64,000 nt of DNA from a virus, in IMG/VR virus record IMGVR_UViG_3300036772_000425, positions 202,924 through 266,923 of that record; one strand, 5' to 3'. Below the pieces are notes generated by a model. That model was not told the DNA's origin, searched no databases, and was given only the letters and a program-made list of their open reading frames with translations. Below, piece after piece: positions 2,204 through 45,593 of the stretch. Position numbers and translations under genes: made by a program. Every line of letters begins with the position of its first letter. The stretch's first letter is position 1.

Positions 2204-2752
2204 TCAGGTTTCCTTTCCGGTGAGACCGAAGAGCATGGTCTTCAACGATGCCTCGTCAGTGTCAGATTCCAACATGGGGAACCGCAGGTCGGTCAGCATC
2301 CGTCGTACCCCCTGGTCGACGCCGCGGGCCTCTTCTTCCGTCTGGTACCGTCCGGCCGCAACGTACTCCTTGGAGCGCTTCAGGAACACGTGCCTGTGAA
2401 CGTGCCCGTCCTCCGCCGCCTGCCGGTAGTACGCCAGGGTCAAGGTCCGGACCCCCTCTGACACGGAGAGAGGGCAGTACAGCTGGGCGTAGTACATCCC
2501 CATCAGCACCGGAGAGTCGGTGACGATCCAATCGACCTTCCCGTACAGCATGCTCTCACGACGTGACTGCTTGCCCAGCAAGTAGATCTGATCGTACGTT
2601 CCGACGTGGCGCTTCTCCCAAGCCCAATCCTTGACGTACTCCCTGACCAGCTCCACGTTCTTCCCCTGGGATTTCAGCAGGTAGTACAGGAAGGCCGCCG
2701 AGGTCGATTTCCCGGTGCCTGGGCCACCGTAGCAGTTGATGATCGTGGTCAT
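2204..2752 (-). CDS. P-loop NTPase, dNMP-kinase-like
   Basis: Walker A GGPGTGKST near the N-terminus; pattern resembles T4 gp1-type dNMP kinases; start set at MTTIIN. Confidence 0.55.
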   Translation of the reverse strand: MTTIINCYGGPGTGKSTSAAFLYYLLKSQGKNVELVREYVKDWAWEKRHVGTYDQIYLLGKQSRRESMLYGKVDWIVTDSPVLMGMYYAQLYCPLSVSEGVRTLTLAYYRQAAEDGHVHRHVFLKRSKEYVAAGRYQTEEEARGVDQGVRRMLTDLRFPMLESDTDEASLKTMLFGLTGKET

Positions 2753-2756
2753 GTTC

Positions 2757-3560
2757 TCAACCTTCCTCGAGGACAAGGTGGCGCTCGATGTAGGCACGGT
2801 CCTGGTTGAACAGCGGGATGTTCAGATGAGCCTCCCACCGCGGTCGTCGGACCGGCTCCGGATCTCCGGGCGCCCATCCCACAGCGGGTGGCTCTGAAAC
2901 GGTTCGGACGATACACGACCCGCGCCGGTACCGAGACGGTAGATCATTCCAGTTTTGGCCCTTCTGGAAGCACATCTCCTGCATCTCGGAACCGTTCTTT
3001 CCGTCGATCTCCTTGTGGGAGTGCAGGGACCGTGCCAGCATCTGGATCGAGTTCCTCGATGCATCCTTCTGTCGCCACAGGAAGTAGTTGCACACCTCCG
3101 ACTCAGGGAGGGTGAACGCTCTGGCATCGAACACAGCTGGCTTGACGTACACGCTGCTGTCGCTGTCGGGCACCTGCTCCCAACCCGTTTCGGCCCACAT
3201 CTTCCAGCTGTTGACGCTGAAGTACGCGGAGGCGGTGCCAGCGGCGATGCTCACCATCTTCTGGACCTGGTTGTCGAACCAGGACTGTGAGTGGAACGTC
3301 TTGTACCCGTGGACGAGCACAGAGATCTCATCCGATTGCGTGTACGCCAGCTGCGCTCCCTGGATCACATCGCACAGGCGCCGGGCGGTGCCGACCATGA
3401 GATCGCTGAACCGCTCGTCGAATGGCTTCTGGGCGCGTTGGGTGTACTGGCTGAACGCCTTCCCATCGACCCTGATGATGACGGGAGAACGTCCGGGCAG
3501 GACGTTCCTGAAGGCACGTTCGTACCCCTTCATCCGTTCGCTGAGCTCACTTTCGGACAT
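2757..3560 (-). CDS. Thg1-like protein (tRNA-His guanylyltransferase family, 3'-5' nucleotidyltransferase)
   Basis: IIRVDGKAFSQY and TQSDEISVLV blocks match Thg1 RLDGRNFH/GQSDEYSFVF; WRQKD block matches SWRQAD; start at internal Met, ATGA overlap with upstream gene. Confidence 0.8.
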   Translation of the reverse strand: MSESELSERMKGYERAFRNVLPGRSPVIIRVDGKAFSQYTQRAQKPFDERFSDLMVGTARRLCDVIQGAQLAYTQSDEISVLVHGYKTFHSQSWFDNQVQKMVSIAAGTASAYFSVNSWKMWAETGWEQVPDSDSSVYVKPAVFDARAFTLPESEVCNYFLWRQKDASRNSIQMLARSLHSHKEIDGKNGSEMQEMCFQKGQNWNDLPSRYRRGSCIVRTVSEPPAVGWAPGDPEPVRRPRWEAHLNIPLFNQDRAYIERHLVLEEG

Positions 3561-3946
3561 CAGTTCATCTCCTTCAGCTGCTTGGGTGTCACGACAGGGT
3601 CCACTTCTGAGGGTTGCACCAGCGGTGCATTCCCCATGCTCCAGGTGCATGCAGCGGAGGCGCTGACCACGATGCTCCAGAACCGACCGTCGATCCTGTT
3701 GATCACGTCGACCACCTCCGCCCTGATCCCGATCGCTGAGTACTCATTGCGCTCCATGTCGTTCCGCGGAGCACGGGTGATCGACATGGCGATGATGCAC
3801 GATGGTCCCTCGTTGTAGCGGGTGATCAACGCTCGTCCCAACGGACCGACCGTGTACCCTCGCCTGATCAGCTTGGCGACCAGGCGCTCCGCAACATCAT
3901 CGCTGTTCGCCACGATCCAGGCGTAGTACGTTTGAACATCAGCCAT
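3560..3946 (-). CDS. hypothetical protein
   Basis: 128 aa; translationally coupled (ATGA) to the Thg1-like gene. Confidence 0.5.
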   Translation of the reverse strand: MADVQTYYAWIVANSDDVAERLVAKLIRRGYTVGPLGRALITRYNEGPSCIIAMSITRAPRNDMERNEYSAIGIRAEVVDVINRIDGRFWSIVVSASAACTWSMGNAPLVQPSEVDPVVTPKQLKEMN

Positions 3947-4534: not shown

Positions 4535-5056
4535 TCAGCTCAGGGTCGACGGAAGCTTAACGCTCTTGACCTTGGCCTTCATGAAGCCACCGTTACCGTC
4601 GGGCACGTCGACCATGGACGCTTCCTCTGCCTCGGAGGCCAGCTCGGCACCGAGCTCTGCCACCTCGCGTCTGACCATGGATCCGCCGCGCGGGGCCTGA
4701 CCAGGCCCCGCTGGCTTCTTGATGATGTCCAACGGGTCCTTTGCACGTGTCTCATGGCCCGTGGGGTACCATTGGCGCGCCTTCCCCACGGCCTGGTCGA
4801 TTCTCTGGCTGATGGCCTTCGTGGTCCTGTCGATGAGCACGGTGCGGACCTCGTCCGCTGATTCAAAGATCTCACCGTCAACATCGTGCAGGTCGAACAC
4901 CTTGCTCGGGTCCGAACCGCAGACACGGTACGTGGTGAGCTCGCCCTCCAGCGATTTCTCGACAGAGATCTTGACCACGTGCATCGGGTAGATCTGCGCC
5001 TCTTTTCGGAGGACCACGTACAGGATCTGTCCCAAGGAGTAGGAGCCGGTGTTCAC
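4535..5056 (-). CDS. hypothetical protein
   Basis: 173-aa ORF with protein-like composition. Confidence 0.5.
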   Translation of the reverse strand: MNTGSYSLGQILYVVLRKEAQIYPMHVVKISVEKSLEGELTTYRVCGSDPSKVFDLHDVDGEIFESADEVRTVLIDRTTKAISQRIDQAVGKARQWYPTGHETRAKDPLDIIKKPAGPGQAPRGGSMVRREVAELGAELASEAEEASMVDVPDGNGGFMKAKVKSVKLPSTLS

Positions 5057-5349
5057 TCGCCGCTCTCCGATCGTTCGATTCGGAACACGTCCAGCGGCGG
5101 TGACGAGGAGGCGGTGACCACGAAGTCAGGTGCACCGCCGTCCAACGGGATCCTTGCCTTCTTGCATAGGGAAGCCACGTTGGTCCACAGTTCCGCCTCT
5201 GCAGCGGAACGCTCCTCGAGACCAGCGAGCCCCTGGCTCAGGGTGCACCGTTCCTCACGAGGAAGGAGGACCGCCATGAGATCGCGGACATGGATCAGCT
5301 GCTCTCGGGTCAGCTCGAGGTGATGAAGCTTCTTCGGTTTGCTGGGCAT
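5053..5349 (-). CDS. hypothetical protein
   Basis: 98 aa; 4-nt overlap with downstream gene. Confidence 0.45.
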   Translation of the reverse strand: MPSKPKKLHHLELTREQLIHVRDLMAVLLPREERCTLSQGLAGLEERSAAEAELWTNVASLCKKARIPLDGGAPDFVVTASSSPPLDVFRIERSESGE

Positions 5350-5370
5350 ACCTGATCCTACTCCTTCCGC

Positions 5371-5661
5371 TCAGGAGAGTGCAGGATCCCGCAGTGCCTC
5401 CAGGAAGGTGTCGTACGCATCACGTCGTGCAACGTTCGACTCGATCTTCAGGACAGCGAGGGCCATCTTCAGCGTCTTCATGTCGAGACGATTCGAGTAC
5501 TCCTCGATGATCTCCTTCCGATCCTCCTTCAGGGTCTCGACCTCGTCGTCGACCCGTTGGATCTTCTCCGTGAATTCATGGACGAGCGCCTTGAGGGCGT
5601 TCAGCTCGTCGGGTTGCAGGTCAGCGATCGCAGGTGCTTCATTCTTGGATTTACGTGCCAT
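5371..5661 (-). CDS. DUF2312/GapR-like small DNA-binding protein (tentative)
   Basis: 96 aa; amphipathic helices with a pattern resembling Caulobacter GapR (EKIQRVDDEVETLKEDRKEI / LDMKTLKMALAVLK / DAYDTFLEAL). Confidence 0.45.
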   Translation of the reverse strand: MARKSKNEAPAIADLQPDELNALKALVHEFTEKIQRVDDEVETLKEDRKEIIEEYSNRLDMKTLKMALAVLKIESNVARRDAYDTFLEALRDPALS

Positions 5662-5701
5662 GTTGCAGAACGTACACCGCCGGTGCTACCATGTTCAGGT
5701 G

Positions 5702-6802
5702 CTACATGGCCTTGATCTTACCGATCGTGTCATGGTACGCCTGGACGTAGGGACTGCTGGTGGGCACCCCACCGTCAGTGGCCTGCTTCACCTGAGCCTC
5801 CAGGTTCTTCAGGTAGAATGATTTCATGCTCTCCTTGGTGCTCTTCAGGATCGCCTGTTCGAATTTCTGGCGGTCCTGCTGGGGCACCTGCTGCAGCTTG
5901 TCGAGCCCCTGGAGCTTCGCTTTTGTCTTGCTCTGCAGGTCCTGCAGTGTCCGAGCCGACATCACGGCCTTCGCTCGGTCCAGGACATCCTTCAGGCTGG
6001 CCTGCACGGCCGCTCGACCCTGCGATTCCATCTGTTTGACGAGCTGGTTGTCCTCGATCATGGCGTGCAGCTTCTTGCTGCTGAACAGCTTCGCCAGGTC
6101 GGCTCCCTCTGACCCACCCTCTGACGCTTCCCTGACCACACCTTCGTAGTAGTCGATACCGGCTCCGATGGGCCCGAGCTCGCCCTTCTTGTGATGGTAG
6201 TTGGCACGGCCGAAACCTCCGACATGACCGTGAGAACGGTGCTGATCGTGTCCCTGGTTGTGCCTGTTCTTGATCCGGTGCACCACATCGTCCGTGCGGC
6301 CACCCGTCAGGGTGCTCAGCATGCCCAACAGCGCATCCGGAGCCTTTCGTGCAAACCCGATGGTGAAAAAGGCTGCTGGTGCGTAGAAGAACGCGGCGAC
6401 AAGGACATCGTTGTCCAGGAAGGCGTCCCAGTTCGACTTGTAGACCTCTGAGTACTCCTGCTTGATCTTCTGCAGGGCGTGGCGCTCCTGGTCGAAGATC
6501 TGCTTGTAATCATCCCGCAGGATCGGGATGATTGTGGTGGCGATCGTCTCGAACGCGGTCCGGACCAACGTCTGCGCCTTGACGCTGAGCTCCTTGGTCT
6601 TTCCGATGGTGGTGTTGACGACATCGGCGAACGGCTTGATGAAGATGTTGTACAGATCGTTGCCCGATCCGTAGTGCACCCCGTAGGGGCTCATCGACAT
6701 GCCGGTTGAGATGAGATCGTAGGCTCCGTAGCCGCCATGATCACCCTCCTCCGACAGGAGGGTGCGCACGTACTCCTTCAGCAGCTCACGTTCTGACGGC
6801 AT
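5702..6802 (-). CDS. hypothetical protein (366 aa)
   Basis: long ORF with good composition and a His-rich internal segment. Confidence 0.55.
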   Translation of the reverse strand: MPSERELLKEYVRTLLSEEGDHGGYGAYDLISTGMSMSPYGVHYGSGNDLYNIFIKPFADVVNTTIGKTKELSVKAQTLVRTAFETIATTIIPILRDDYKQIFDQERHALQKIKQEYSEVYKSNWDAFLDNDVLVAAFFYAPAAFFTIGFARKAPDALLGMLSTLTGGRTDDVVHRIKNRHNQGHDQHRSHGHVGGFGRANYHHKKGELGPIGAGIDYYEGVVREASEGGSEGADLAKLFSSKKLHAMIEDNQLVKQMESQGRAAVQASLKDVLDRAKAVMSARTLQDLQSKTKAKLQGLDKLQQVPQQDRQKFEQAILKSTKESMKSFYLKNLEAQVKQATDGGVPTSSPYVQAYHDTIGKIKAM

Positions 6803-6814
6803 CGCTCCTAAGTA

Positions 6815-7240
6815 TCAGCCCAGCAACCGGAGGGCGCCCGCGATCAAGGTCCGTTGGTACGATACGATCTCCGGCAGTTGGGAGATCGGGAACCACCGTG
6901 CGTCGGCAACCTCGTTGTCAGGATCATCGTGCTTGGGCTCATGGTCACCCACCGGACGTGCGAGCCATGACATCACGGTCTTCACCTCGTGGCGGGAAGT
7001 GAATGTGACGGGCGGCAGCGCCTGGCCCAGCTCGATCAGGACACCTGTCTCCTCTTTGACCTCTCGCCGGGCTGTGTCCTCGAACGCCTCACCTGGGTTG
7101 ACGTGACCCTTGGGGATTCCCCAACGATCCCGTCCCTTGAACTGCTGAATCAGCAGGATCGCGGGTCCAGCCTCGGTCGCACGCCAGGTCACAGCACCGC
7201 ATGAGGTCACGCGGACGCGCTCCTTGTTCTTCGTCACCAT
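6815..7240 (-). CDS. NUDIX hydrolase
   Basis: Nudix box GHVNPGEAFEDTARREVKEETGV (GX5EX7REUXEEXGU). Confidence 0.8.
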   Translation of the reverse strand: MVTKNKERVRVTSCGAVTWRATEAGPAILLIQQFKGRDRWGIPKGHVNPGEAFEDTARREVKEETGVLIELGQALPPVTFTSRHEVKTVMSWLARPVGDHEPKHDDPDNEVADARWFPISQLPEIVSYQRTLIAGALRLLG

Positions 7241-7252
7241 GTTCCATACAAT
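7224..7252 (+). promoter_or_regulatory. sigma70-like promoter candidate (TTGTTC-N17-TACAAT) upstream of the NMNAT-like gene
   Basis: -35 TTGTTC at 7224-7229, 17-nt spacer, -10 TACAAT at 7247-7252; GGAGG RBS 10 nt before the ATG at 7281. Confidence 0.4.
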
Positions 7253-7280
7253 ACCCCTGGTCGCAGGAGGTGAGCAATTG

Positions 7281-7811
7281 ATGAAGATCGGTTTGATCGC
7301 TGGCGGTTACAAGCCCCTTCACCGGGGACATTTCTGCATGATCCAGATGGCTGCAGCAGAGTGCTCCACCGTCCGGGTGTTCGCATCGAAGAGCGACCGA
7401 TGCAGGAAGGGGGAGCGAAGCATCTCAGGCCACGACATGGTGATGCTATGGGACAGGACGTACCGCAACATCATGCCGTCCAACGTCCGGGTCACCTTCA
7501 GCGAACAATCACCGATCCGTGATGTTTGGGACGCGCTGGGCAACCCGGACGAGGGTTGCAGCTACACCGTGTACTCAGACCCGACAGACCTCACCCACAA
7601 CTTCCCGAACGACAGGTTGCTGCGGTACTGTCCGAAGCTCCTCGACGAGGGTCGTGTTCACCTCAAGGCAGTCGACCGCACCTCCACCGTCGACGTGAGC
7701 GGGACCATGATGCGCCGGCTCCTGGACGAGGGCGATCGGGTTGGGTTCACCGCCATGCTGCCCGACGGGGTCGACTGCGACCTGATCTGGAACACCCTGT
7801 TGGGCACCTGA
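7281..7811 (+). CDS. nucleotidyltransferase of the NMNAT/cytidylyltransferase superfamily
   Basis: (H/T)xGH motif GGYKPLHRGH near the N-terminus; SxT-like VSGTMMRRL near the C-terminus; start at MKIGLI with RBS. Confidence 0.7.
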   Translation: MKIGLIAGGYKPLHRGHFCMIQMAAAECSTVRVFASKSDRCRKGERSISGHDMVMLWDRTYRNIMPSNVRVTFSEQSPIRDVWDALGNPDEGCSYTVYSDPTDLTHNFPNDRLLRYCPKLLDEGRVHLKAVDRTSTVDVSGTMMRRLLDEGDRVGFTAMLPDGVDCDLIWNTLLGT

Positions 7812-8663
7812 CCGCAACAGGTTTTCAACGTACTCACGACGCAGCCGGTACTTGGGCTCGAACCGGGTGATGCTGTACAGCGAGAAGGCCAGGTCGTAGT
7901 CGGACGCAGGGACGTGGATGTACCCTGCGTCGACCGCGCAGAAGATCCCCACGTTGTACGCCCCCAGGACGACAGACGGCACCAGGGATTGTTGGATCTG
8001 GGATCGAAGGCTGGGATCGAAGGACACGTACACCTTGTTGACCGACACCTCACCCTCTTCCAGGAAGGACCAAGTTTCCGCTGACAGCTGATCCTCCGTC
8101 CATGTCCGGGCCAACGTTCTGAACAATCGTCCCCAGTGCTTTCTGCCTCCCTGCCGCGAGCTCAACAAGCACTCCTTGCCGACGAACTTGACCTCCCCAT
8201 ACGGGGTGTCGTTGTGGTCCAGCGTGGGGGTCGGATCCAAGCCTAAACGGATCCGGATCTCTCTTTCCCACCGACCCTCGTAGGCCATCACGGGTGCATG
8301 CGAGCAGTTCATCGTACGTTCTTCATTGCTGAAGATCCCGCCCAGCCTCGGATCACTTTCCCTGGTGTGGGCCACCAGGCCCACAAGCTCTTCCAGGTTG
8401 AAGCATTTCAACGCTTCGGGTTCAGCTGCCACCATGCCTGAACGTCTGCTCTCTAGGTCATCCAATGCTCGTTGGGCCCTTTCAAGTGACCTTTCATCCG
8501 CCCTTGTTGGGATCTGACGGCTCTTGGACCGACCTACGTTCATCTCCTGCTTGGAACCGATGGTGCGCGCTAGCCGTTCTACCTCGTCGTGGAGACGAAG
8601 GATCTCGGCATCCATCGGAACAATGACGGAGATGAACGCAGGGGCCTGCGTGAATTCATCCAT
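7575..8663 (-). CDS. hypothetical protein; 3' ~235 nt overlap convergent NMNAT gene
   Basis: ORF track 7575..8771; the start is set at the internal MDEFTQ; the C-terminal ~70 aa look like a low-complexity readthrough antisense to the NMNAT gene. Confidence 0.4.
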   Translation of the reverse strand: MDEFTQAPAFISVIVPMDAEILRLHDEVERLARTIGSKQEMNVGRSKSRQIPTRADERSLERAQRALDDLESRRSGMVAAEPEALKCFNLEELVGLVAHTRESDPRLGGIFSNEERTMNCSHAPVMAYEGRWEREIRIRLGLDPTPTLDHNDTPYGEVKFVGKECLLSSRQGGRKHWGRLFRTLARTWTEDQLSAETWSFLEEGEVSVNKVYVSFDPSLRSQIQQSLVPSVVLGAYNVGIFCAVDAGYIHVPASDYDLAFSLYSITRFEPKYRLRREYVENLLRSGAQQGVPDQVAVDPVGQHGGEPNPIALVQEPAHHGPAHVDGGGAVDCLEVNTTLVEELRTVPQQPVVREVVGEVCRV

Positions 8664-8721
8664 CTGTTCCTCCTGCGTGGGATGATCCCCACCCGCAGAA
8701 GGTACGATCCCGGATCCCGAA

Positions 8722-9918
8722 CTACATGCGAACAGTTCCCATCCGGGTCCGATCGTATCGTTGGATCCCAAGGATCTGATTGACAGGAGCGAAGCAACCG
8801 GTCAACTTGTAGGTTTGCCCCCGCCAGGGGAAGACCACCCCCTCGATCGAAGAGGTGATGCCACCGTAGTGTGTGAGATCATCGAGGTTATCGTGCAGCA
8901 GTTCGACCTGTTCCGGATCTGCATCTGCCTCGATCTGAGCAGCACAGGCTCTCACCGCATCATGCATCATCTGCAGGGAACGCTGGTGGGATACGACCAT
9001 GGGAGACCGAGCGAACGCGAGCGTATCGACAGCAAGCCGTTGGACGATACCCACGATGGGCCTACGAAGTATCTTGACCAGGAGTTCCGATCGTTCGACG
9101 AACTCACCGATCTTCCAGCTGAATTCCGGGCATTGCTGCTTGAGAAGCGTCAGGTTATGGTACCCGGGCAGCTTCAAGGCACGTGCGACGATGCGACACT
9201 GCATCCTGATCGGCAGGTGAAGCTCTTCAACGAACGGGACGAGGCGCATTCGCAGGTAGTCTGCGATGGTCGAATCCAGCCCAAGGTCTGAAACAGCAAG
9301 GGTGTGCTGCAGGGCACGTTGGAACGTAGGTAGGCATGAGTCCGGCCGAGCACTGAAGTTGATGGGAACCGGGCCCCTCACAGTCCACCCAGCTGCATCC
9401 AGCGTCCCTGGGCCCAGGATGGGATCGAGGGCATCGGGCCGGCAGCTGTCCTTGATCGCCTTCCCATCGACGACCCTGAAGCTAGAGCAGCCATGGATGA
9501 CCACGTGGTTGCCCACGTACCTCACCACGTTCGGGTTGTCCTCGCTGATGATCTCAGCGTTGTACCAGCGCTGTGCCTCACCGAAGGTCGACAGCAGGAG
9601 ATCGACGGAAGCCCGCCCGATCGCACCCTGCAGGGCACGGAAACCACCCACGAACGCAAGGATGACGTTCGGTTTGTTCGGGAACCTAGCCGCCAGCTCG
9701 GGCTCTCCCATCCCGCCGCGGACGATGTCTCCCAGGCCACGGGCCACCCGGAGACCGGCAACGGGATGCCAACTGAACGTCAGCGCCTGGCCGTCGAGCT
9801 TCTCTGTCGCTCCGGCCAGGCGACCACCGTGGATCGTCTCGGCAAGTTCGAGCAGGTCACGGAACCTGAGCTCATGATCCTCGTACAGGTGCTTGATGTG
9901 TCCGGCAGCTCCGCCCAT
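8722..9918 (-). CDS. ATP-dependent RNA ligase, Rnl1-like
   Basis: nucleotidyltransferase motif I EKLDGQAL (KxDG) about 40 aa from the N-terminus; size (398 aa) similar to T4 Rnl1. Confidence 0.55.
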   Translation of the reverse strand: MGGAAGHIKHLYEDHELRFRDLLELAETIHGGRLAGATEKLDGQALTFSWHPVAGLRVARGLGDIVRGGMGEPELAARFPNKPNVILAFVGGFRALQGAIGRASVDLLLSTFGEAQRWYNAEIISEDNPNVVRYVGNHVVIHGCSSFRVVDGKAIKDSCRPDALDPILGPGTLDAAGWTVRGPVPINFSARPDSCLPTFQRALQHTLAVSDLGLDSTIADYLRMRLVPFVEELHLPIRMQCRIVARALKLPGYHNLTLLKQQCPEFSWKIGEFVERSELLVKILRRPIVGIVQRLAVDTLAFARSPMVVSHQRSLQMMHDAVRACAAQIEADADPEQVELLHDNLDDLTHYGGITSSIEGVVFPWRGQTYKLTGCFAPVNQILGIQRYDRTRMGTVRM

Positions 9919-9960
9919 GCACTGTATGGTACTGGGCAGGGCGAACGGTCTACATGTACA

Positions 9961-10170
9961 TCACTCAACCTTGCTGACAGCAGAGTCCACTGCATGGTAC
10001 AGGAACGACCTGACATGAGCATCGTCCAGCAGTTGATCAGGCTCCAGGTTGAAGTGTTCCTTCATCAGGCGAACGATCTCAGGGGTGAGTTGAACATTCA
10101 ACACGGCACCGTTGTTCAACCTGATTGTGCGTTCCTCGCACGGACCCAAGATCGAAACCTGATCACTCAT
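9961..10170 (-). CDS. hypothetical protein
   Basis: 69-aa ORF. Confidence 0.4.
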   Translation of the reverse strand: MSDQVSILGPCEERTIRLNNGAVLNVQLTPEIVRLMKEHFNLEPDQLLDDAHVRSFLYHAVDSAVSKVE

Positions 10171-11728: not shown

Positions 11729-12112
11729 TCATCCTTCGGATTGTGCTTCATCTCCATCTGCGGGATGGTACACCAAACCCCTGTACAGGATGTCAGCGTA
11801 CCGGGCGAGCTCACGATCCAGCTCTGAAACAACGTCTATGTCCTTGGTCTGCACCTTGAGCCCCACGGTGTCACCGTCCACGCTCAGGGTTGCACCATGG
11901 TGCTGCGCGGCCTCGTAGGCGAGCAGTTGGATGACGAAGTCATTTCGATCATCCATCCGTCTGAACCGAAAGACCTTGCACAGAGCACCACCCGCTTCGA
12001 GCCAACGTTCTGAAGGCAGGATGGGCACCCTGGGTTGCTTCGGGGTGATGGGTCGGGCGCTCGAACCGGAAGATTCAATGAGCCGTCGATGCAGGGCGAG
12101 CAAGCTGTTCAT
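11729..12112 (-). CDS. hypothetical protein
   Basis: 127-aa ORF. Confidence 0.45.
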   Translation of the reverse strand: MNSLLALHRRLIESSGSSARPITPKQPRVPILPSERWLEAGGALCKVFRFRRMDDRNDFVIQLLAYEAAQHHGATLSVDGDTVGLKVQTKDIDVVSELDRELARYADILYRGLVYHPADGDEAQSEG

Positions 12113-12882
12113 CCCAGCACCACCACTCCGCCCACCACCGCCTCGGCTGTGAAACTGGAACCGTGCGTGTAGATCCTTCTATCCCTGTCGATGATGGCGC
12201 TACCGCCCTTGAAGGACATGTCCCGCTCCTTGCCCACGCGGTTCGAAACGATCAGGTTCGCCCTGGTGTCCTCCACCAGCTCGATCCAGGCAGAATCAGG
12301 GTACCCATACGCAGCTCCCCAGTTTGTCAGCAAGGCGATGGTGTCCACGTCGCCCCGATTGTAGAATTTCTGTCCGGACCTGTAGAAGTTGTACGATTCC
12401 CGGTACTTGTTGCTGACGTCGCGGCACACCAGCACTCCCAACCTACCCGCAGGCGTGATGATGACCGGCGGTTGCGACTCCGACGGTTGGGCCCACATGT
12501 TGTCGCTGCCGTACAGGTTGTGTTTCTGCGCGTTCGCCTCCAGCCCACCGGGCCCGACGACTGCGGCACTGTTGTACAGCTTGCCTTCATGGAGCTCCAC
12601 ATAACCGAACACGATCCTACAATCGTGCTGCCGGGCCAGGTCGACGAAGGCCTGCGTCTGGTACCCACCTCGTGTCTGGGCAACTGTCATCGCCTCCTTG
12701 GGTGATTCGAACACGTAACCACCGGTGCATAGTTCGGGCAGCACGATGACACGAGCTCCCTTGACAGCAGCCTCGAACGTGAGCTGGAGCGCTGTCGCCA
12801 TGTTCTCACGAACCCGGAACAACCTGGGTTCGAACTGCACCGCGGCGACGATCGCCGCGGGCTCCACGAATGATCCGGGCAC
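12109..12882 (-). CDS. carbon-nitrogen hydrolase (nitrilase superfamily)
   Basis: VIVLPELCTGGY (Glu), catalytic Cys in LGVLVCRD, length 257 aa, typical CN_hydrolase layout. Confidence 0.7.
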   Translation of the reverse strand: MPGSFVEPAAIVAAVQFEPRLFRVRENMATALQLTFEAAVKGARVIVLPELCTGGYVFESPKEAMTVAQTRGGYQTQAFVDLARQHDCRIVFGYVELHEGKLYNSAAVVGPGGLEANAQKHNLYGSDNMWAQPSESQPPVIITPAGRLGVLVCRDVSNKYRESYNFYRSGQKFYNRGDVDTIALLTNWGAAYGYPDSAWIELVEDTRANLIVSNRVGKERDMSFKGGSAIIDRDRRIYTHGSSFTAEAVVGGVVVLG

Positions 12883-12886
12883 GGTC

Positions 12887-14038
12887 TCAACCCCTCAGGC
12901 GCAGGGTGGGTCGCCTGGACTCACCGAGGCCGAAATCGACGATGTCATCATCGTGGACTGTCTCGGGTTCCGCGCGGCGGCGCGCCGGTGCAGGTTCTTC
13001 ATCTCCCAATCCAAGGTCAACAACGTCGTCATCCACCACGCTCGACTCGGGCTCATCGTCTCCCATGTCCAGGTCGACAACGTCATCGTCATGGACCACA
13101 TCAAGGACCTCGCCGCCCTTGCGCGCACGTTTGATCGCGGTGTGCAGGAACTCGCGAAATCCGTCCAGATCACGCACGATGTCAGGATGATCCTTCATGA
13201 GCCTGACATCCGCGGCCGAGATCTCTCCAGACTTCGACAGGAACTTGATGTAGTCGTTCATGGCGGTCAACGTGAGGATCTCAGCGTCATCCTCGTCCAT
13301 GTCAGCCACGAACTTTGCCTTTTCAAGGGCCTTGTCGACGGCCGCCTTCGCGCCGGCAACAGACAGACCCATCTCCTTGGCGATGTCAGAGAATTGGCTG
13401 CCGCCCACGTCATCCATGCTACCCAAGGCAGTCGACTTGTACGTTCGTCCGGCGGGTTTGCTGGGCTCGGGTGCATCTGGGACCCCATCGCCCACTGCGG
13501 GCACGTCAGGGTTGGCGTCATCCTCCTTCGGGTTCTCGTAGTCCTTGATGGCCTTGCCCATGGAGCGCTTCAACCAGGCCTTGCTCTTATCAACGCGGTC
13601 CTGGTACTCCTTGCCGTGCACACCGAACGGGATCTTCGTCACGGGCGGAAGCTCCGCCTCCTGCAACATCCGCCTGATGCTGCGACGCAGTGCTTCCTCA
13701 ACCTGGCTGGTACCACCTTGTGCGGCCTTGGTCTTCATTTCCTTTTCCTTGTCCTCGGCTGCTCCAGCCTCGATGTTTGCCTTGACGATATCGTACAACT
13801 TCGCCATCTCAGAGTCGGGCAGGTTCTTGACCAGCTGCGAGACAGCCACCCCGAACTCCACCTTGCTTTGAGGGCTGAAGTTCGGGTTGATTGGGTCTGT
13901 TGCAGCGACCGACGGATCAACGTTTGAGTTGACCTCCGCAGGTTGATCATGGTTCGCTGACCACCCTGCGAAATCCTTGTTCCACAGGGCCTCATTGACC
14001 AGCTCCCTCAACGCCCTGTCGGTGACAGTCACCTTCAC
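12887..14038 (-). CDS. hypothetical protein with C-terminal acidic tandem repeats
   Basis: 383 aa; three imperfect VVDDDVVDLGLGDEEP repeats at the C-terminus. Confidence 0.55.
   Translation of the reverse strand: MKVTVTDRALRELVNEALWNKDFAGWSANHDQPAEVNSNVDPSVAATDPINPNFSPQSKVEFGVAVSQLVKNLPDSEMAKLYDIVKANIEAGAAEDKEKEMKTKAAQGGTSQVEEALRRSIRRMLQEAELPPVTKIPFGVHGKEYQDRVDKSKAWLKRSMGKAIKDYENPKEDDANPDVPAVGDGVPDAPEPSKPAGRTYKSTALGSMDDVGGSQFSDIAKEMGLSVAGAKAAVDKALEKAKFVADMDEDDAEILTLTAMNDYIKFLSKSGEISAADVRLMKDHPDIVRDLDGFREFLHTAIKRARKGGEVLDVVHDDDVVDLDMGDDEPESSVVDDDVVDLGLGDEEPAPARRRAEPETVHDDDIVDFGLGESRRPTLRLRG
12918..13100 (-). repeat. imperfect ~60-75-nt tandem repeats encoding acidic VxDDDVVDhGhGDEEP units
   Basis: DNA-level repeats gatgacgatgacgttgtcgacctgg / gatgacgacgttgttgaccttgg / gatgatgacatcgtcgatttcgg. 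Confidence 0.6.
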
Positions 14039-14041
14039 AGA

Positions 14042-14353
14042 TCAACCCTCCGCGCTCGGCGCGCCGGGTGCAGCGGAGGGTCCATTGTACTTTGCATCGG
14101 TCCAACGTCGACCGAAGTACAGTGTCAGGATCGGGACCAGGTAGGCTCCGCAGGCTGATACGTCGAAGGGCCTGATGTTCAGGCTGCCGATGTGATCAAT
14201 GATCGAGACGATGTACGCAAGCGTCGTCACCCAGAAGGCGATGAACACCATCGTCACCGTCACTGATCCGTAACCCTTGGCGTCCCGGATCCAGAACCAG
14301 GCTGGCTTGACCTCAGTCGGATCCGGATCGTTGCTGCTCGCTTGCTGGTCCAT
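14042..14353 (-). CDS. membrane protein (2 predicted TM helices)
   Basis: VTMVFIAFWVTTLAYIVSII and AYLVPILTLYF hydrophobic segments. Confidence 0.5.
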   Translation of the reverse strand: MDQQASSNDPDPTEVKPAWFWIRDAKGYGSVTVTMVFIAFWVTTLAYIVSIIDHIGSLNIRPFDVSACGAYLVPILTLYFGRRWTDAKYNGPSAAPGAPSAEG

Positions 14354-15910: not shown

Positions 15911-16531
15911 TCATGCCGGTCCGGCCGGCCCTCCAGGTTCGGCGCTGCCCTGTGCACGATCGGCGGGCGGTGCCTTGAACTTGTCTGCCGCCACGTCGGA
16001 GGAACCTTCGCCCGCCTCCATCCCATGATCATCGCGCAGGGTGCTCTCGAACGCATCAAGCACATCATCGCTGTACGTTTTGGCCAGGAAGCTCTTGGCT
16101 CGACGGATCAACGTGCTCCTGATCTCCAGGAGGCTATCGTAGTTCTGGATCAGGCGCACCACATCATTGCCGAACTTCTCCACGTCGATGGAGTCGAGCC
16201 CCGGTTTGGTGGTGTCATCTCCGGTCATGGCTGCGGCGCCCGGCGCCGCATCCCCAGGATCGGGCGGAGCGTCATCGTCTCCTGCCTCCAGGATCAGGTG
16301 ACCCTTCACCAGGTCACGCCAGTCCAGTGCTTCCATCTGATCGACTGATGCTTCAGGACCAGCACCGTCGGATTTCTTCGAGTCAGTTTCGTACTGTCCC
16401 AAGTAGCGATCGACCTGTGAGTCCAGGCTGTCGCCGCTGGCACCTGATTCATGGGCGAGCGAATCATCCTCCTCACGGAGGAGACGTGCCAAAGGTCCTT
16501 CTGTGAAGAGTTCTGTCAGACGTCGCATCAC
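15911..16531 (-). CDS. acidic hypothetical protein
   Basis: 206 aa; Asp/Glu-rich. Confidence 0.45.
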   Translation of the reverse strand: MMRRLTELFTEGPLARLLREEDDSLAHESGASGDSLDSQVDRYLGQYETDSKKSDGAGPEASVDQMEALDWRDLVKGHLILEAGDDDAPPDPGDAAPGAAAMTGDDTTKPGLDSIDVEKFGNDVVRLIQNYDSLLEIRSTLIRRAKSFLAKTYSDDVLDAFESTLRDDHGMEAGEGSSDVAADKFKAPPADRAQGSAEPGGPAGPA

Positions 16532-17244
16532 TTCACCGCCTCATGAATGGACTCAGCCTTCTTGAAGCGCTCAGAGATCACATCCCAGTTGAGTTCACGC
16601 ATCATAGCGACCAGGTATGACTTCTTGTCTGTCAGGTAGTCCTTTACGTAGGCATGTTCGTGCATGTCAATGACGATCAGGGGTTGGAGACCGACCATGA
16701 CGTCCTGGCTGTGGTTGCTGACGAAGGTGTTGACGTATCGCTTCAGGAAGGCGCTGTACCCGCACACGGCCCACCCGGTACCGCACGCCATCGCACAGCC
16801 CATGAAATCAGCCTGCCAATCGGCGAAGGTGCCGAAGTCACGTTCCAAGCGAAGGTACGGCAGAGAGTCCATGTACACTTCAGAGTGCGGATCAAAGCAG
16901 TTGGAGAAGTACAGCTCGTGAAGCCACACCGCGTTCATGTTGAATGTTTCATCGAGCTTCAGGCTCCTGTACGAGCTGTGCTTGCTGTCGGCCTCGGCAC
17001 GCTGAGCAGTGTCCAGCTCTGCAGAGACCCGATTCAAGGTCTCCAGGTATCCCTTGTACAGTGCACTGTGGGCGTCCTTCGTCTTTTGCGAGACGAACTC
17101 GCTGACCTGGTTGTACGGTTTCGGTTCCGCTACGTAGGATTCCTCCAAGAGTTCCTGGCGCAATGGCCCCAAGGATCGCTTGACGATGGCCTCCACGTCC
17201 ACGTCGGACAGCAGACCTCTCGATGCCTTCTTCGTCGTTCCCAT
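16528..17244 (-). CDS. Fe/Mn superoxide dismutase-like protein
   Basis: VIDMHEHAYVKDYLTDKKSYL matches the SOD DVWEHAYYLxYxNxRxxY motif; WLHELYF matches NHxxYW; all four putative metal ligands are present. Confidence 0.7.
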   Translation of the reverse strand: MGTTKKASRGLLSDVDVEAIVKRSLGPLRQELLEESYVAEPKPYNQVSEFVSQKTKDAHSALYKGYLETLNRVSAELDTAQRAEADSKHSSYRSLKLDETFNMNAVWLHELYFSNCFDPHSEVYMDSLPYLRLERDFGTFADWQADFMGCAMACGTGWAVCGYSAFLKRYVNTFVSNHSQDVMVGLQPLIVIDMHEHAYVKDYLTDKKSYLVAMMRELNWDVISERFKKAESIHEAVK

Positions 17245-18132: not shown

Positions 18133-18570
18133 TCACAAAAATTCCAACTCGACCGCGTCCAGCAGGCACAGGACCTCAACACCGGTCGATCGAAGAAGCT
18201 CGATCGGTGCAGGATCCCTGTACAGTTGGTCGTACACCACCCTGGTGATGTCCGCGTTGATGATCAACTTGGAGCACATCAGGCACGGGCTGTGCGTGAT
18301 GTACATGTGTTTCAGCTTGGGAAAACTGAAGTCGCACTTGACCAGCGCGTTCGTTTCAGCATGGATGTAACCGGATTTTCCAGGTTCCTCAGAATCAGGT
18401 ACGTGCGGACCACCCTTGTAGTTCCCATTGTACCCAATCGCAAGCACCGCCGTGTTGTCAGCCGGCACGACCAGGGCGCCCACCTGCAGGCGCCTGTCGT
18501 AGCTTCTGCCTGCAATGACGTGTGCCATTGACATCCAGGTCTGTGCCCAACCCTGCCGCCGTTGGTTCAT
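18133..18570 (-). CDS. dCMP deaminase (cytidine/deoxycytidylate deaminase family)
   Basis: zinc-binding HAETNAL and HSPCLMCSKLI (HxE...PCxxC). Confidence 0.8.
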   Translation of the reverse strand: MNQRRQGWAQTWMSMAHVIAGRSYDRRLQVGALVVPADNTAVLAIGYNGNYKGGPHVPDSEEPGKSGYIHAETNALVKCDFSFPKLKHMYITHSPCLMCSKLIINADITRVVYDQLYRDPAPIELLRSTGVEVLCLLDAVELEFL

Positions 18571-19700
18571 GCCCCCACCAGTCCCTGGAACAATTCCAGC
18601 TCCCTACGCTCCAGTTCCATACCGAGCTCCTTGCCCGAGAACCCGAGAGCCAACAGTGGGTCACCCCTGACAGGGTCCATGTCCATGTACTCTCCGAGCG
18701 CCATGATGTTCGGATCAAGTGAGATACCGCAACCGATGACGTACTCCAGGACCTCGGAGTCCGTCAGGCCTGATGACCTGATCCGTTTCCGGAGCCGGCT
18801 GGGCTCGGAACCGTCGAACCGGGAGAGCTCCAGCAGAGCCATGGTGCTACGAACCTCTCGATCGCTGTACTTCATGCTACGGAGGATCCGATCGACCTTC
18901 ACCGGATCGTTCGTAGACAGCAGGCCGGCAAGGAAGACGGGCACGCTGCGTGACATCACCGGGGGGTTGGTCCACAGGCCTGGGATGACACGTGCCCACA
19001 AATTGTGGTCCGTCATCAGATCACAGAACAGTTCGGGGCTCTGTGCGGTCGCCAGGGTCCGGATCAGTTCATCATGGATCCTTTCGGACGAGATCCCATC
19101 CAGGTCATGCGAGAGCAGGGCCCGTGATGTCGCAGGGTCCACCTGCCAACCGAACCGTGCGGCGAACCGGATCGCCCTGAGGACCCGAAGCTTGTCCTCA
19201 CGGAACCTCTCCTGTGGGTCCCCCACGGCCCGAAGGATCCCTGCTCGGATGTCGCTCAACCCGCCCACCAGGTCCACCACCTCTCGGGTTCGGATGTCGT
19301 AGAAGAGCGCATTGCAGGTCAGATCCCGACGTTGAACGTCCTCCACGATGGTCGCGAATCGGACCGTCGGGTGTCGACCTAACGACAGATCCTCTCGGAA
19401 GGTGGCGATCTCTACGTGCTCCGTCGCACCGGGCAATTCAGTGGCGATCACACCGAAGGCAGCGCCGACCTCCATCACCGGGTGACCGAGGGACGAAACG
19501 ATCGCCTTCACATCGTGGGGTGCAGCATCGGTAGCGAGATCAAGATCCTTCGGCACCAAGCCCAGCACAGCATCGCGAACGGCACCCCCAACCACGTACA
19601 GGGAAGAACCCCGTGAACTGAAGGCAGCCGCGAGCTCATCGAGAGATTCTGGCAGGGCGATCTGAAGGGATTGACGTTCCATTTCAGCAGACACTACCAC
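18567..19700 (-). CDS. tRNA nucleotidyltransferase (CCA-adding enzyme), head domain only
   Basis: GGAVRDAVLGLVPKDLDLATDA and RRDLTCNALFYD motifs of class II CCA/poly(A) polymerases; 377 aa, no HD domain. Confidence 0.85.
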   Translation of the reverse strand: MVVSAEMERQSLQIALPESLDELAAAFSSRGSSLYVVGGAVRDAVLGLVPKDLDLATDAAPHDVKAIVSSLGHPVMEVGAAFGVIATELPGATEHVEIATFREDLSLGRHPTVRFATIVEDVQRRDLTCNALFYDIRTREVVDLVGGLSDIRAGILRAVGDPQERFREDKLRVLRAIRFAARFGWQVDPATSRALLSHDLDGISSERIHDELIRTLATAQSPELFCDLMTDHNLWARVIPGLWTNPPVMSRSVPVFLAGLLSTNDPVKVDRILRSMKYSDREVRSTMALLELSRFDGSEPSRLRKRIRSSGLTDSEVLEYVIGCGISLDPNIMALGEYMDMDPVRGDPLLALGFSGKELGMELERRELELFQGLVGA

Positions 19701-29030: not shown

Positions 29031-30395
29031 TCATGCGATCAACTTCACCTTCCAGAGGCCGGTCGACACCCCGAAATCATCCTTCTTGACCTCCGCCACG
29101 TAGAGCCGGAAGGGTTCCAGGAGCTCCTTCGCAGTCCATACGCTCAACCGGATCGGCTTTCCGATCGGCCCTGTGACAAAGACCTGGACGTAGTCCTTGC
29201 CTGCCTTCGACCTCTTCTTCAGGCCCGCCACCGGCTCTCCGCCCTTCTTCACGGTCGCCAACACCGTGACGAACCACACCACGTCAGTCTCACCGAGCTC
29301 CAGATCCTCGATGGATCCTACGCCCTTGTTGTCCATGCGCCCGAAGATCTCCGGATCGAACATGGTGGTGACGTCCGCGGTGCCGAAGAGCTCTGACTGG
29401 AACCCAGCGAGTTCACGTTGGGTCCATTCCTCCGAAAAATCATCACGAAGACCGCGGGCCAGGCCGTACAGGTTCTTCCTGCCCTCATGCCGATCCTTTG
29501 TGGGTGATCGCTTGATCATGGCACCGTGGTCGCGGACACGTTCGACCATCTCGGTGGATCCCTTCCTGCGTGGGACCTCCTCCGTGTACGAACCCATCAT
29601 GACCTCGTACATGTGACGGTAGCTGCCGAACAATCGATCATCACCGACGCAGTTCAGGCTGTCGAAGGCCCGGATCTTGATCAGGGCTTCCATCGCTTTC
29701 CTGTTGAGCTTGCTGGGGCGCCAGCTACCGTCCTCCGCGTACAGGAGAGCCTCAAGGTCAGAGAACGGACGGTTTGCCACGATCTCCTCGACAGCCGCCT
29801 CGCCGATCCCCTTGACCGTCGTCATGCTGGGCATCATCCGTTTCCCTGGCAGGATGGTCCAGCTCACGGTGGCATGGTTGATGTCGATGGGCACGATCTG
29901 GTATCCCAAGGAACGTGCCTCGCCGAACGCCTTCGCTCGATGGATGGGAGTGTGCGACATGGACTCCATGTATGCGCACAACCACTGTTCCTCGTAGTAC
30001 GTCAGGAGCCAAGAGCACCAGAAGCTGTCGATGGCATACGCCACCGCATGGCTCTTGTTGAAACCGTAACCTGCAAAGTACAGGATCTTGTCGAAGAGGT
30101 TGCTGGCCACGGCCTCCGTGTACCCATTGGTGATGGCGCCCTGGATGAAAGGATCCCGAATCTCCTTCTTTGCCTTCTCGGCAGCGGCTCCCACCAACTT
30201 CATGATGGCGCGACGGACCTCGTCGCACTTGTCCTTCGGGAACCCGGCGACCTTCTCGGCAAGTTCCATCACCTGCTCCTGAAAAATTATACAGTTATGC
30301 ACCAGAAGGTTATTTGCGAAGAAGTTGTGGTTCTTCTTGACCTGGATGTCGTACACCGGTTGGGCCGGTTTCCGCACGATCGACCGGATCTTCAT
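29031..30395 (-). CDS. dnaE: DNA polymerase III alpha subunit C-terminal fragment (DnaE-C) preceded by a split-intein C-fragment
   Basis: begins MKIRSIVRKPAQPVYDIQVKKNHNFFANNLLVHN|C (an Npu DnaE IntC-like VYDIGVERDHNFALKNGFIASN|C); the extein contains AGYGFNKSHAVAYA, the hallmark of DnaE. Confidence 0.85.
   Translation of the reverse strand: MKIRSIVRKPAQPVYDIQVKKNHNFFANNLLVHNCIIFQEQVMELAEKVAGFPKDKCDEVRRAIMKLVGAAAEKAKKEIRDPFIQGAITNGYTEAVASNLFDKILYFAGYGFNKSHAVAYAIDSFWCSWLLTYYEEQWLCAYMESMSHTPIHRAKAFGEARSLGYQIVPIDINHATVSWTILPGKRMMPSMTTVKGIGEAAVEEIVANRPFSDLEALLYAEDGSWRPSKLNRKAMEALIKIRAFDSLNCVGDDRLFGSYRHMYEVMMGSYTEEVPRRKGSTEMVERVRDHGAMIKRSPTKDRHEGRKNLYGLARGLRDDFSEEWTQRELAGFQSELFGTADVTTMFDPEIFGRMDNKGVGSIEDLELGETDVVWFVTVLATVKKGGEPVAGLKKRSKAGKDYVQVFVTGPIGKPIRLSVWTAKELLEPFRLYVAEVKKDDFGVSTGLWKVKLIA
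30294..30395 (-). mobile_element. split intein C-terminal fragment (IntC, 34 aa) of DnaE
   Basis: blocks F/G with terminal HN followed by the +1 Cys at 30291-30293. Confidence 0.8.
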
Positions 30396-30415
30396 GGGCG
30401 CAACGGTCTGCATGC

Positions 30416-31153
30416 CTACATTTTCCTCAATTTGCTGGGATAGTTCACTGCCTCGGACGCCCATACCCGATGGACGGTGTACCCGAGCGCCTCGCCAGCC
30501 CTCGTGAACGACAGGTCGATCCTGAACTGTCGTTTCATCTTGGGGGTGAGCTGGTGCATGTCAGGGTTGCCGTGCCAGTAGTCCCCGTCGAACTCCACGA
30601 TGAGCTTGATGGACGGGACGCAGAAGTCGAACTCATGGTTGATGGTGTCAACACGGAACCGATGGATGACCTCGTCACCGTGGATCGCCTCCAACACGCT
30701 CTTGAACGCGAGCTCAGCCTCCGAGTTCCGCTTCCGAGGTTTCTGCGTCTCGAGCCCTTTGCTGATCTTTCGAGAGTGTTCATCGAAGAAACCGGCCTCA
30801 TGTGAGCGCAGGTGCCATGTCAAACCGCGGTGTCGTTTGAAGATCCGACCGCACTGGTCGCAGGCCACGTCAGTCGCCTCATCGTTCGAACTGCAGTAGG
30901 ATCTGTGGGAACGCAGTGCCGTGTTGGAACAGAAGTCCTTCTTGCAAACATCGCACCGGTACTCACCCTCCTTCCGGACGTTCTCCCGCAGTTTCGCGAT
31001 CCTCAATTTCTCCAGGTGTTCATCGGTGAACTTTCGACCCTTGTATGTTCGGCGGCGCCATTCCGACAGGTGTTCGATGCAGCATGCGACAGACCGCACG
31101 TTGCGTGTCACGTACTGCTTGTCGCAGATAAGACACGTTCTGTTCAATTTCAT
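30416..31153 (-). CDS. C2H2 zinc-finger protein with C-terminal Vsr/DUF559-like endonuclease domain (putative free-standing homing endonuclease)
   Basis: two C2H2 fingers (CDVCKKDFCSNTALRSHRSYC; CDQCGRIFKRHRGLTWHLRSH); C-terminal IVEFDGDYWHG...D..R...L...GY.V.RVW matches the DUF559/Vsr-like fold signature; 20 nt upstream of IntC. Confidence 0.6.
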   Translation of the reverse strand: MKLNRTCLICDKQYVTRNVRSVACCIEHLSEWRRRTYKGRKFTDEHLEKLRIAKLRENVRKEGEYRCDVCKKDFCSNTALRSHRSYCSSNDEATDVACDQCGRIFKRHRGLTWHLRSHEAGFFDEHSRKISKGLETQKPRKRNSEAELAFKSVLEAIHGDEVIHRFRVDTINHEFDFCVPSIKLIVEFDGDYWHGNPDMHQLTPKMKRQFRIDLSFTRAGEALGYTVHRVWASEAVNYPSKLRKM

Positions 31154-35985: not shown

Positions 35986-35999
35986 AGAACACCCTACCA

Positions 36000-45342: not shown

Positions 45343-45593
45343 TCATAGCTCGGTTCAGAGTATTCCATGTGTTCTTTGCACGTACGCCGGTACGCTTCAA
45401 TGAAAGACTCAGCGTCGCTGGGCCTTGCCGGAAGATCCAAGATCATCTCAGGGCCCACCTTGGGCCTGTAGGTGCACTTGACCACGTACGGATGCTCGGA
45501 GCTCCTCTCGAAATGGTGTTGACCTGAATCAACCTTGATGATCTTCCCTTGCACAACGATCAATCCCAAGCTCATTCGAACATCCTCTGCCAT
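45339..45593 (-). CDS. hypothetical protein
   Basis: 84-aa ORF. Confidence 0.4.
   Translation of the reverse strand: MAEDVRMSLGLIVVQGKIIKVDSGQHHFERSSEHPYVVKCTYRPKVGPEMILDLPARPSDAESFIEAYRRTCKEHMEYSEPSYE

Follow-up and report, generated by a model that had tools for sequence, protein, structure and literature searches.

Within a 64,000-nucleotide stretch of viral DNA (positions 202,924 to 266,923 of IMG/VR record IMGVR_UViG_3300036772_000425; hereafter the window), a 176-amino acid, NMNAT-like nucleotidyltransferase with HxGH and SGTxxR motifs (hereafter NT) is encoded on the plus strand at 7281-7811, back to back with a minus-strand gene for a 141-amino acid Nudix hydrolase (6815-7240). From sequence matches and gene context, we propose with moderate confidence that NT is an NMNAT-type adenylyltransferase working in a ligase-linked module and that the Nudix hydrolase is an accessory. 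The strongest context signal, fusion combined with synteny, ties NT to three neighboring genes, here called X, Y, and Z, and not to the Nudix gene or to NAD genes. A first-pass annotation had read the Nudix/NT pair as a NAD-salvage or anti-NADase module. The divergent arrangement that it described is present. The module itself was not supported: the pathway partners were not detected in the window, the Nudix protein resembles MutT1 and Ap4A hydrolases, and the fusions point to Z, X, and Y. To our knowledge, the NT family is known as annotation only, and the ligase-linked module is not described in the literature that we searched.

A profile search with the NT family, which is specific to phages, returned 1035, 491, and 271 clusters (counted at 50% identity) at E<=1e-3, 1e-10, and 1e-30, respectively. 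About one third of the best matches were fusion proteins. Among 158 family proteins, 27 carried an N-terminal and 28 a C-terminal extension of at least 80 amino acids. When these extensions were clustered with the open reading frames (ORFs) of the window, the three largest partner groups included X (7575-8771), Y (5702-6802), and Z (8722-9918), all encoded on the minus strand. Homologs of X are fused N-terminal to NT in 10 clusters (P0051, 52, 70, 71, 91, 107, 113, 114, 119, and 145), those of Y are fused C-terminal to it in another 10 (P0010, 21, 48, 97, 99, 105, 106, 111, 124, and 135), and homologs of Z are likewise joined to NT. A fourth group combines a different Rnl-like N-domain, NT, and a long C-terminal extension (P0092 and ~30 IMG/VR contigs, with ORFs of ~1300 amino acids). 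Z-NT and NT-Z proteins both exist, a result that simple read-through would not readily explain. Fusions were also found in the complete genomes of cultured isolates, namely the 639-amino acid NT-Z protein of Microcystis phage Mel-JY01 and gp026 of Campylobacter phage CP220, which joins an Rnl-like domain to NT and whose gene adjoins those of a "virion structural protein" and the portal; thus, assembly or gene-calling error is unlikely. The isolate relatives were reached only via other family members, and a tblastn search of 50,697 phage records with the window NT as query yielded no match at E<=0.01. None of the fusion partners is a NAD enzyme (one is RNA-ligase-like, the other two are unknowns), and a Nudix domain was absent from all 47 long (multidomain) proteins of the NT family that were scanned; both results speak against a NAD module. 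Because the NT domain shares polypeptides with homologs of Z, X, and Y, NT would act together with the RNA-ligase-like Z rather than with the Nudix hydrolase as a NAD-reconstitution pair.

The gene order Y-(Nudix)-NT-(X)-Z was found in 31 viral loci, inside a longer conserved block with Pterin_4a and CN-hydrolase genes; Y was syntenic in 23-25 loci. NT was inverted with respect to its neighbors in 26 of the 31 loci; in the other 5, it was co-directional or fused. The Nudix gene was present in 13 of the 31, each time between Y and the inverted NT, and in three loci seeded from Nudix homologs (43-52% identity), the inverted NT adjoined it in all three. In one Nudix-seeded locus (L078, 813-1972, minus strand), the inverted unit consisted of a gene for an unknown 212-amino acid protein followed by NT, indicating that the inverted transcription unit can carry more than NT. 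Within one clade of large phages, the Nudix/NT pair is stably maintained, and the Nudix hydrolase is a clade-specific accessory that is dispensable for the NT family as a whole.

We found that NT carries both of the motifs reported earlier. In an alignment of 30 family sequences, the first motif reads K11-P-L-H14-R-G-H17 in a GxxxPxHxGH context, with P12, G16, and H17 invariant; the second reads V-S140-G-T-M-M-R145, with S140 and R145 invariant, and is of the ISxTxxR type, which is common to PPAT and FMNAT too and hence not NMNAT-specific. Conserved features of the family's own are SxSDRxRxGE and YSDxxD. No Pfam or NCBIfam model reached its cut-off on NT: TIGR01526 scored 20.8 bits (cut-off 341), TIGR01527 12.4 (181), and the PRK00071 models ~15-17 (150-197). 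The top weak matches were NMNAT models, including phrog_3462 at 5.6e-8. When the profile of the 30 sequences was run against the PDB, the best match was 9x6f (6.9e-8), the structure of Bas30_86, which is the NadR-like NMNAT/RNK enzyme of a phage NAD+-reconstitution pathway, NARP3 (PMC13464706). The archaeal NMNAT MJ0541 came at 4.1e-6, and E. coli NadR and PPAT both came at 1.9e-4. The family member P0120 aligns along the whole NT domain to NadR-like NMNATs of T5-like Salmonella phages. Other family members match phrog_3041 and phrog_395, the top BFVD fold matches are phage proteins named "Cytidyltransferase-like domain-containing", and the annotations of the family in T4-like cyanophages, Campylobacter phages, and Microcystis phages read "cytidylyltransferase" or "NMNAT-like".

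Among the known enzymes compared with NT, the highest score was that of a putative NaMNAT (3h05, 13.2), followed by PPAT (12.6), NadM (12.5), archaeal NMNAT (12.2), the NadD enzymes (10.4-12.2), and NadR (10.9-11.3). The glycerol-3-phosphate and choline-phosphate cytidylyltransferases, a best alignment to which had been named as the result that would speak against an NMNAT, scored lowest at 8.0-8.3. By sequence, NMNATs of the NadR and archaeal types are the nearest characterized relatives of NT. The earlier assignment holds at superfamily level, with NMNATs as the closest known family; NT is no more than a candidate member, and it scores far below all of their curated thresholds.

NT has in common with the NadR-type NMNATs (Bas30_86, 9X6F/9X6H; E. 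coli NadR, 8X7F) the GxxxPxHxGH and ISxTxxR-type motifs and a Ser that closes strand 2 and precedes a conserved Arg. Here, S36 and R40 of NT align with S37 and the next Arg of Bas30_86; S37 belongs to the NMN site (PMC13464706). In a low-scoring second segment, Y98 pairs with F110 and D103 with D115. NT differs from the Bas30_86 type in several respects: identity is ~17%, the RNK domain is missing, the PnuC partner was not detected in the window, the position of a Lys differs, curated thresholds are not reached, and the gene sits in an RNA-ligase-like module.

We propose that NT, as a Rossmann-type HxGH enzyme, would use ATP to adenylylate a 5'-phosphoryl acceptor. Tentatively, and at rather less than even odds, NMN (nicotinamide mononucleotide) or its nicotinic acid counterpart NaMN is the leading acceptor candidate. 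The role of NT could be to form or recycle an adenylylated dinucleotide or, alternatively, to perform 5'-phosphate adenylylation chemistry. In the clade of the window, its gene has been inverted in place, with its own weak promoter-like site and ribosome-binding site. Several observations weigh against this proposal. The NMNAT matches of NT rest mainly on its first ~40 residues, the match to Bas30_86 lying essentially within them; the near-invariant family Lys just before the Pro (KPxHxGH) is off the position of Bas30_86 K10; and equivalents of Bas30_86 E80, P84, and G89 could not be mapped in NT. Gene fusion shows a functional link and does not tell the joint reaction. The window NT is without the C-terminal helix motif, described below, that most stand-alone homologs of its clade bear, and what we suggest about virion association may for that reason not apply to it. 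Last, NAD-pathway partners could lie elsewhere in the ~340-kb genome, beyond the 64 kb scanned.

The assignment of the accessory as a minus-strand NUDIX hydrolase was borne out. The product of 6815-7240 matched Pfam NUDIX at 1.4e-22 (80.6 bits; cut-off 21.1) and contains a complete Nudix box, Gx5Ex7REUxEExGU, from G45 to V67 (GHVNPGEAFEDTARREVKEETGV). Its top NCBIfam match was MutT1 (2.5e-18; 66 bits versus an equivalog cut-off of 475), and its best PDB matches were an 8-oxo-(d)GTP phosphatase (9cxx, 1.7e-11), the Ap4A hydrolase 3i7u, NUDT18, and NUDT2. Weak matches to RppH and DCP2 were found in NCBIfam and the PDB. In the same two collections, the ADP-ribose and NADH pyrophosphatase subfamilies (NadM-Nudix, NudC, and NudF) were not the best match. 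The model of NudC, a NAD+ diphosphatase, reached 3.6e-7 with 29.9 bits (cut-off 158), and the NadM-type bifunctional models, at E 0.006-0.05, were outranked by MutT1, Ap4A hydrolases, and NUDT18, a grouping that counts against a NAD module. A Pro at +15/16 past the Nudix box, which we take to be a signature residue and to which we give low weight, is absent here. Judged by its matches, the protein is of the MutT1 N-domain/Ap4A-hydrolase type. It has the WxxPKGH context and the full Nudix box in common with the N-terminal domain of mycobacterial MutT1 and with the Ap4A hydrolases NUDT2 and Aquifex 3i7u; mycobacterial MutT1 has a C-terminal domain, whereas the window protein is without one.

The conserved block is inherited vertically, and adjacency alone is thus no proof of coupling between the Nudix hydrolase and NT. 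The adjacency may be mechanistically meaningless, with the Nudix protein an independent MutT-like sanitizing or housekeeping enzyme that sits at a junction made by the inversion of NT and has been inherited with the block. This explanation is a serious one, to which we give a chance a little short of even. It is favored by the kind of enzymes that the protein matches best (the 8-oxo-(d)GTP phosphatase MutT1, NUDT18, and other sanitizing or Ap_nA hydrolases), by the many nucleotide-metabolism genes of the window, which encodes ribonucleotide reductase, thymidylate synthase, thymidine kinase, and dCMP deaminase, and by the occurrence of NT without the Nudix gene in 18 of the 31 loci and in all distant clades. 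On the other hand, this Nudix subfamily was found only beside NT in every case examined (13 of 13 syntenic loci, locus L002, and all three Nudix-seeded loci), an association that a NAD module would also explain. In addition, the protein shows ~60% identity to proteins of some 50 clusters on large phage contigs and is better conserved than its neighbors, NT being at ~40%.

Z, the proposed partner of NT, is RNA-ligase-like in motifs and fold. Its alignments show invariant GHxxH, EKxDG, E122, EG(V)VF, and K371-x-T, so that it combines motifs I (KxDG), III, IV, and V with an adenylyltransferase fold, as is the case for ATP-dependent RNA ligases. The closest folds are those of the RNA ligases Rnl2/REL1, Rnl5 (NgrRnl), Rnl1, and Trl1, with which these four motifs are common. 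Z differs from them in a large helical insertion, in the family-specific N-terminal GHxxH, and in the replacement of the second motif-V lysine (K-x-T). A link of Z to DUF6267, a family discussed below, was considered but not supported, as hhalign gave a probability of only 3.5%, and we take the two as analogous. Likewise, jackhmmer found no link between Z and the Rnl-like N-domain of P0092 and CP220.

The company of Z raises a different explanation, in which NT would nucleotidylate another acceptor for Z, either a 5'-phosphate RNA or DNA end (yielding an App- or NAD-like cap) or a phospho-metabolite. The genes would then form an RNA-end repair unit, and the Nudix hydrolase would trim 5'-triphosphate or capped ends in the manner of RppH or Dcp2. 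NT is fused to at least two to three kinds of RNA-ligase-like domain (Z, the P0092/CP220 Rnl-like domain, and DUF6267), and the window is rich in RNA repair, with a Thg1-like polymerase, a CCA-adding enzyme, PNKP, RNA_ligase, and RlaP. The weak RppH and DCP2 matches, the failure of NT at all NMNAT thresholds, and its own motifs (SxSDRxRxGE and YSDxxD) fit as well. However, we know of no compact NMNAT/PPAT-type HIGH-family enzyme that acts on polynucleotide 5' ends. Moreover, Z keeps its catalytic lysine and should therefore self-adenylylate unaided, and a canonical RNA ligase is already among the genes of the phage. We regard an RNA-end unit as unlikely, though worth keeping in view.

Distant relatives of NT are found in cyanophage virions. 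The NT hidden Markov model matches cyanophage S-SZBM1_140 (annotated "cytidylyltransferase") along almost the entire domain at 5e-8, and this protein, together with its downstream neighbor S-SZBM1_139, is present in CsCl-purified virions (PMC9146016). ORF154 of S-CREM2 (PMC10665884) and the "NMNAT" proteins of S-SCSM1 and S-CBWM1 (PMC9602691) are virion proteins as well. The cyanophage proteins (S-SZBM1_140, S-CREM2 ORF154, S-SCSM1 ORF91, and that of S-CBWM1) belong to the same broad family as NT, at ~21-26% identity, and their genes adjoin that of an analog of Z, a KxDG protein (DUF6267). They carry N- or C-terminal extensions and an N terminus similar to the T4 capsid targeting sequence, while the window NT is a bare 176-amino acid domain. 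Upstream of S-SZBM1_140, S-SZBM1_141 is a KxDG protein that matches Pfam DUF6267 (3.7e-130; L075, 5478-6671, minus strand). Fusions of DUF6267 to NT exist in P0074 and L065 (7938-9746), and DUF6267 may be a ligase-like enzyme.

An amphipathic helix motif, E.LLR.Y[VI]R..L(.E), was found at domain boundaries of the Z/X/NT/Y module, in the linkers and tails of P0001-P0158. It stands at the C terminus of 33 of the 108 stand-alone NT-family proteins as compared to none of 540 control windows, and it also occurs in the Z-NT and NT-Y linkers, at the C terminus of X (LRREYVENLLRS), and at the N terminus of Y (6761-6802). Its sequence is similar to that of the capsid targeting signal of T4, MKTYQEFIAE (PMC8442874), and to L-x-E protease sites; S-SZBM1_140 begins with MRFRQFIIEA. 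Capsid targeting by the helix motif, suggested by the T4 likeness and the cyanophage virion proteomics, is a lead, not a result.

It is a speculative extension, and a doubtful one, that NT and the RNA-ligase-like enzyme are an ancient two-enzyme unit, widespread in large phages, often fused, and capsid-delivered in at least some lineages. Such a unit might, as infection begins, supply NAD+ or another adenylylated dinucleotide to a reaction of the ligase or capping type that acts on the ends of RNA or DNA. Alternatively, the injected enzyme might pre-empt NAD+-depleting immunity. In either version, the Nudix hydrolase would edit the same nucleotide or 5' end.

The remaining explanation is the one put forward at first, namely that Nudix and NT form a NAD+ salvage or reconstitution module (NARP2- or NARP3-like) that would counter NAD+-depleting defenses such as Thoeris, DSR, and SIR2-HerA. 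In such a module, NT would convert NMN to NAD+, while ADP-ribose or NAD-related nucleotides would be processed by the Nudix hydrolase. In its favor, the nearest characterized relatives of NT are NMNATs, including the NMNAT domain of Bas30_86, and authors of cyanophage proteome papers have raised the idea that NMNAT-like proteins carried in the virion may adjust the NAD of the host (PMC9602691). The known pathways consist of Adps and Namat (NARP1), Nampt and Nmnat (NARP2), or PnuC and a NadR-like enzyme (NARP3) (bioRxiv 10.1101/2024.02.11.579819; PMC13464706). The partner is nearly obligatory in such systems, as 94% of Nampt-bearing phages also encode Nmnat (bioRxiv 10.1101/2024.02.11.579819). 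We scanned about 60 ORFs of the window, which covers 64 of the ~340 kb, with Pfam and NCBIfam. Among them, we detected neither the NAPRTase-family Nampt of NARP2, nor the Adps (phosphoribosyl pyrophosphate synthetase-like) and Namat (Nampt-like) of NARP1, nor PnuC, the RNK domain of NARP3, or NadE. The earlier remark that no NAMPT, Adps, or Namat homolog is recognizable in the window was thus accurate. The conversion of ADP-ribose and nicotinamide to NAD+ is beyond an NMNAT alone.

One P-loop ORF of the AAA_28 family (2204-2797, minus strand; Pfam 2.8e-10), which overlaps the end of the Thg1-like gene, was considered as a split RNK domain of NadR and rejected, as it had no NCBIfam match and no NadR match in the PDB even at E<=10. 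The bifunctional NMNAT-Nudix enzymes NadM and KVP40 NatV (NARP2, with Nampt) are among the closest known systems to such a pair. Here, by contrast, the two activities are encoded by separate divergent genes, the Nudix protein is MutT1/Ap4A-like and not ADP-ribose pyrophosphatase-like, Nampt was not detected, and the 47 long family proteins scanned include no fusion of NT to Nudix. The Nudix gene is also missing from many of the syntenic loci, being present in only the 13 of 31 noted above. Taken together with the unlikeness of the AAA_28 ORF to NadR and the choice of fusion partners, this makes a NAD+ salvage or reconstitution module improbable.

A nitrilase-superfamily CN-hydrolase gene, reported earlier as lying some distance from the pair, is real (12109-12882, minus strand; Pfam 1.8e-24). 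It encodes a stand-alone enzyme in which Pfam and NCBIfam detect no NAD-synthetase domain. A Pterin_4a-like gene (11729-12112, minus strand) abuts it with overlapping stop and start codons, and this pair is kept in 14-18 related viral loci.

Phage NMNATs are known to take part in NAD+-reconstitution pathways, by which NAD+-depleting immunity is overcome. The NT family would be a larger sister family, here without those partners. If NT makes NAD+, an injected or ligase-coupled NAD+ supply would be indicated; if it does not, the family would stand for a chemistry of nucleotides or RNA ends that is common in large phages but as yet unexplored. In both cases, the fusions provide a concrete and testable set of partner proteins. 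They also call for caution, since an HxGH enzyme beside a Nudix hydrolase is not by itself an anti-NADase module.

Concerning the NT gene itself, the listed plus-strand ORF begins with TTG at 7224. All homologs align from MKIGL, which places the true start at ATG 7281. NT is a lone plus-strand gene; its neighbors, like nearly all genes of the window, are on the minus strand. The ribosome-binding site GGAGG that had been noted ahead of it is present at 7266-7270, 10 nucleotides before the ATG on the same strand. We could also read from the sequence the promoter-like site described earlier (7224-7252, plus strand), with TTGTTC at 7224-7229, a 17-nucleotide spacer, and TACAAT at 7247-7252. The -35 element falls within the first Nudix codons, and the intergenic gap of 40 nucleotides contains the -10 element. 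Both elements and their spacing are as reported, but the description "near-consensus" was overstated, as the site matches the consensus at 3/6 and 5/6 positions, 8/12 in all.

A scan for the sigma-70 consensus gave no site in 5000-10000. Sites of 8/12 quality number 19 in the 64 kb (both strands), as compared to 82-132 (about 110) in shuffled sequences. Only the site at 7224-7252 and one other (14111-14084) are correctly placed upstream of a gene start. The other site, on the minus strand at 14084-14111, has TCGACG, a 16-nucleotide spacer, and TACAAT and precedes the start of ORF 12887-14038 by 46 nucleotides. When the regions upstream of 24 orthologs were subjected to a Gibbs-type motif search, antisense conservation of the Nudix coding sequence was all that emerged at first. 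Limited to -62..-6, the search gave an information content of 6.4 versus 5.6-6.1 in shuffles, barely above the controls. We do not claim a conserved promoter upstream of NT, since the search did not clearly exceed the shuffles; that the site is a weak promoter is plausible from its sequence and placement.

X and Y have no match in Pfam, PHROG, or NCBIfam. X is convergent with NT and overlaps its 3' end by 237 nucleotides. The conserved part of X ends with the helix motif quoted above at about 7809-7844, right at the NT stop codon, and its last ~77 codons (7575-7808) run antisense through the 3' third of NT. The L002 ortholog of X has 266 amino acids and stops 8 amino acids past the conserved LRREYV..LRS motif. 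This shorter ortholog suggests that the X gene of the window has lost its stop codon, and the ~77-codon end is probably a read-through tail. Y encodes 366 amino acids and carries an N-terminal motif, ELLKEYVRTLLSEE.

Proteins identical to those of two window ORFs are encoded on a 340,433-bp JGI contig; the window comes from a large phage, on a contig of ~340 kb. Its RNA-repair genes include a Thg1-like 3'-5' polymerase, an enzyme of the CCA-adding/poly(A) polymerase family, and PNKP. The RNA-repair ORFs are 2757-3650, 18567-19700, and 48695-49702, all on the minus strand, plus 45572-46489 or 51226-52173. Canonical Pfam RNA_ligase (1.3e-29) and RlaP (9e-22) were detected in the window at the level of the ORF set; the KxDG candidates for the former, 45572-46489 and 51226-52173, had no PDB sequence match. 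Besides DnaB, the window encodes a DnaE-type polymerase that is divided between two minus-strand genes, 33172-36015 and 29031-30464, with ~2.7 kb of other genes between them. An intein N-part closes the first gene and an intein C-part opens the second (Pfam Intein_splicing), suggesting that the DnaE halves are joined by a trans-splicing split intein. Between these halves, ORF 30416-31153 (minus strand) carries a C2H2 zinc-finger motif, CDQCGRIFKRHRGLTWHLRSH, which is unusual for a phage, and one ORF of the scanned set matched Pfam zf-C2H2 at 3.4e-8. In addition, the window encodes an Fe/Mn superoxide dismutase at 16528-17244.

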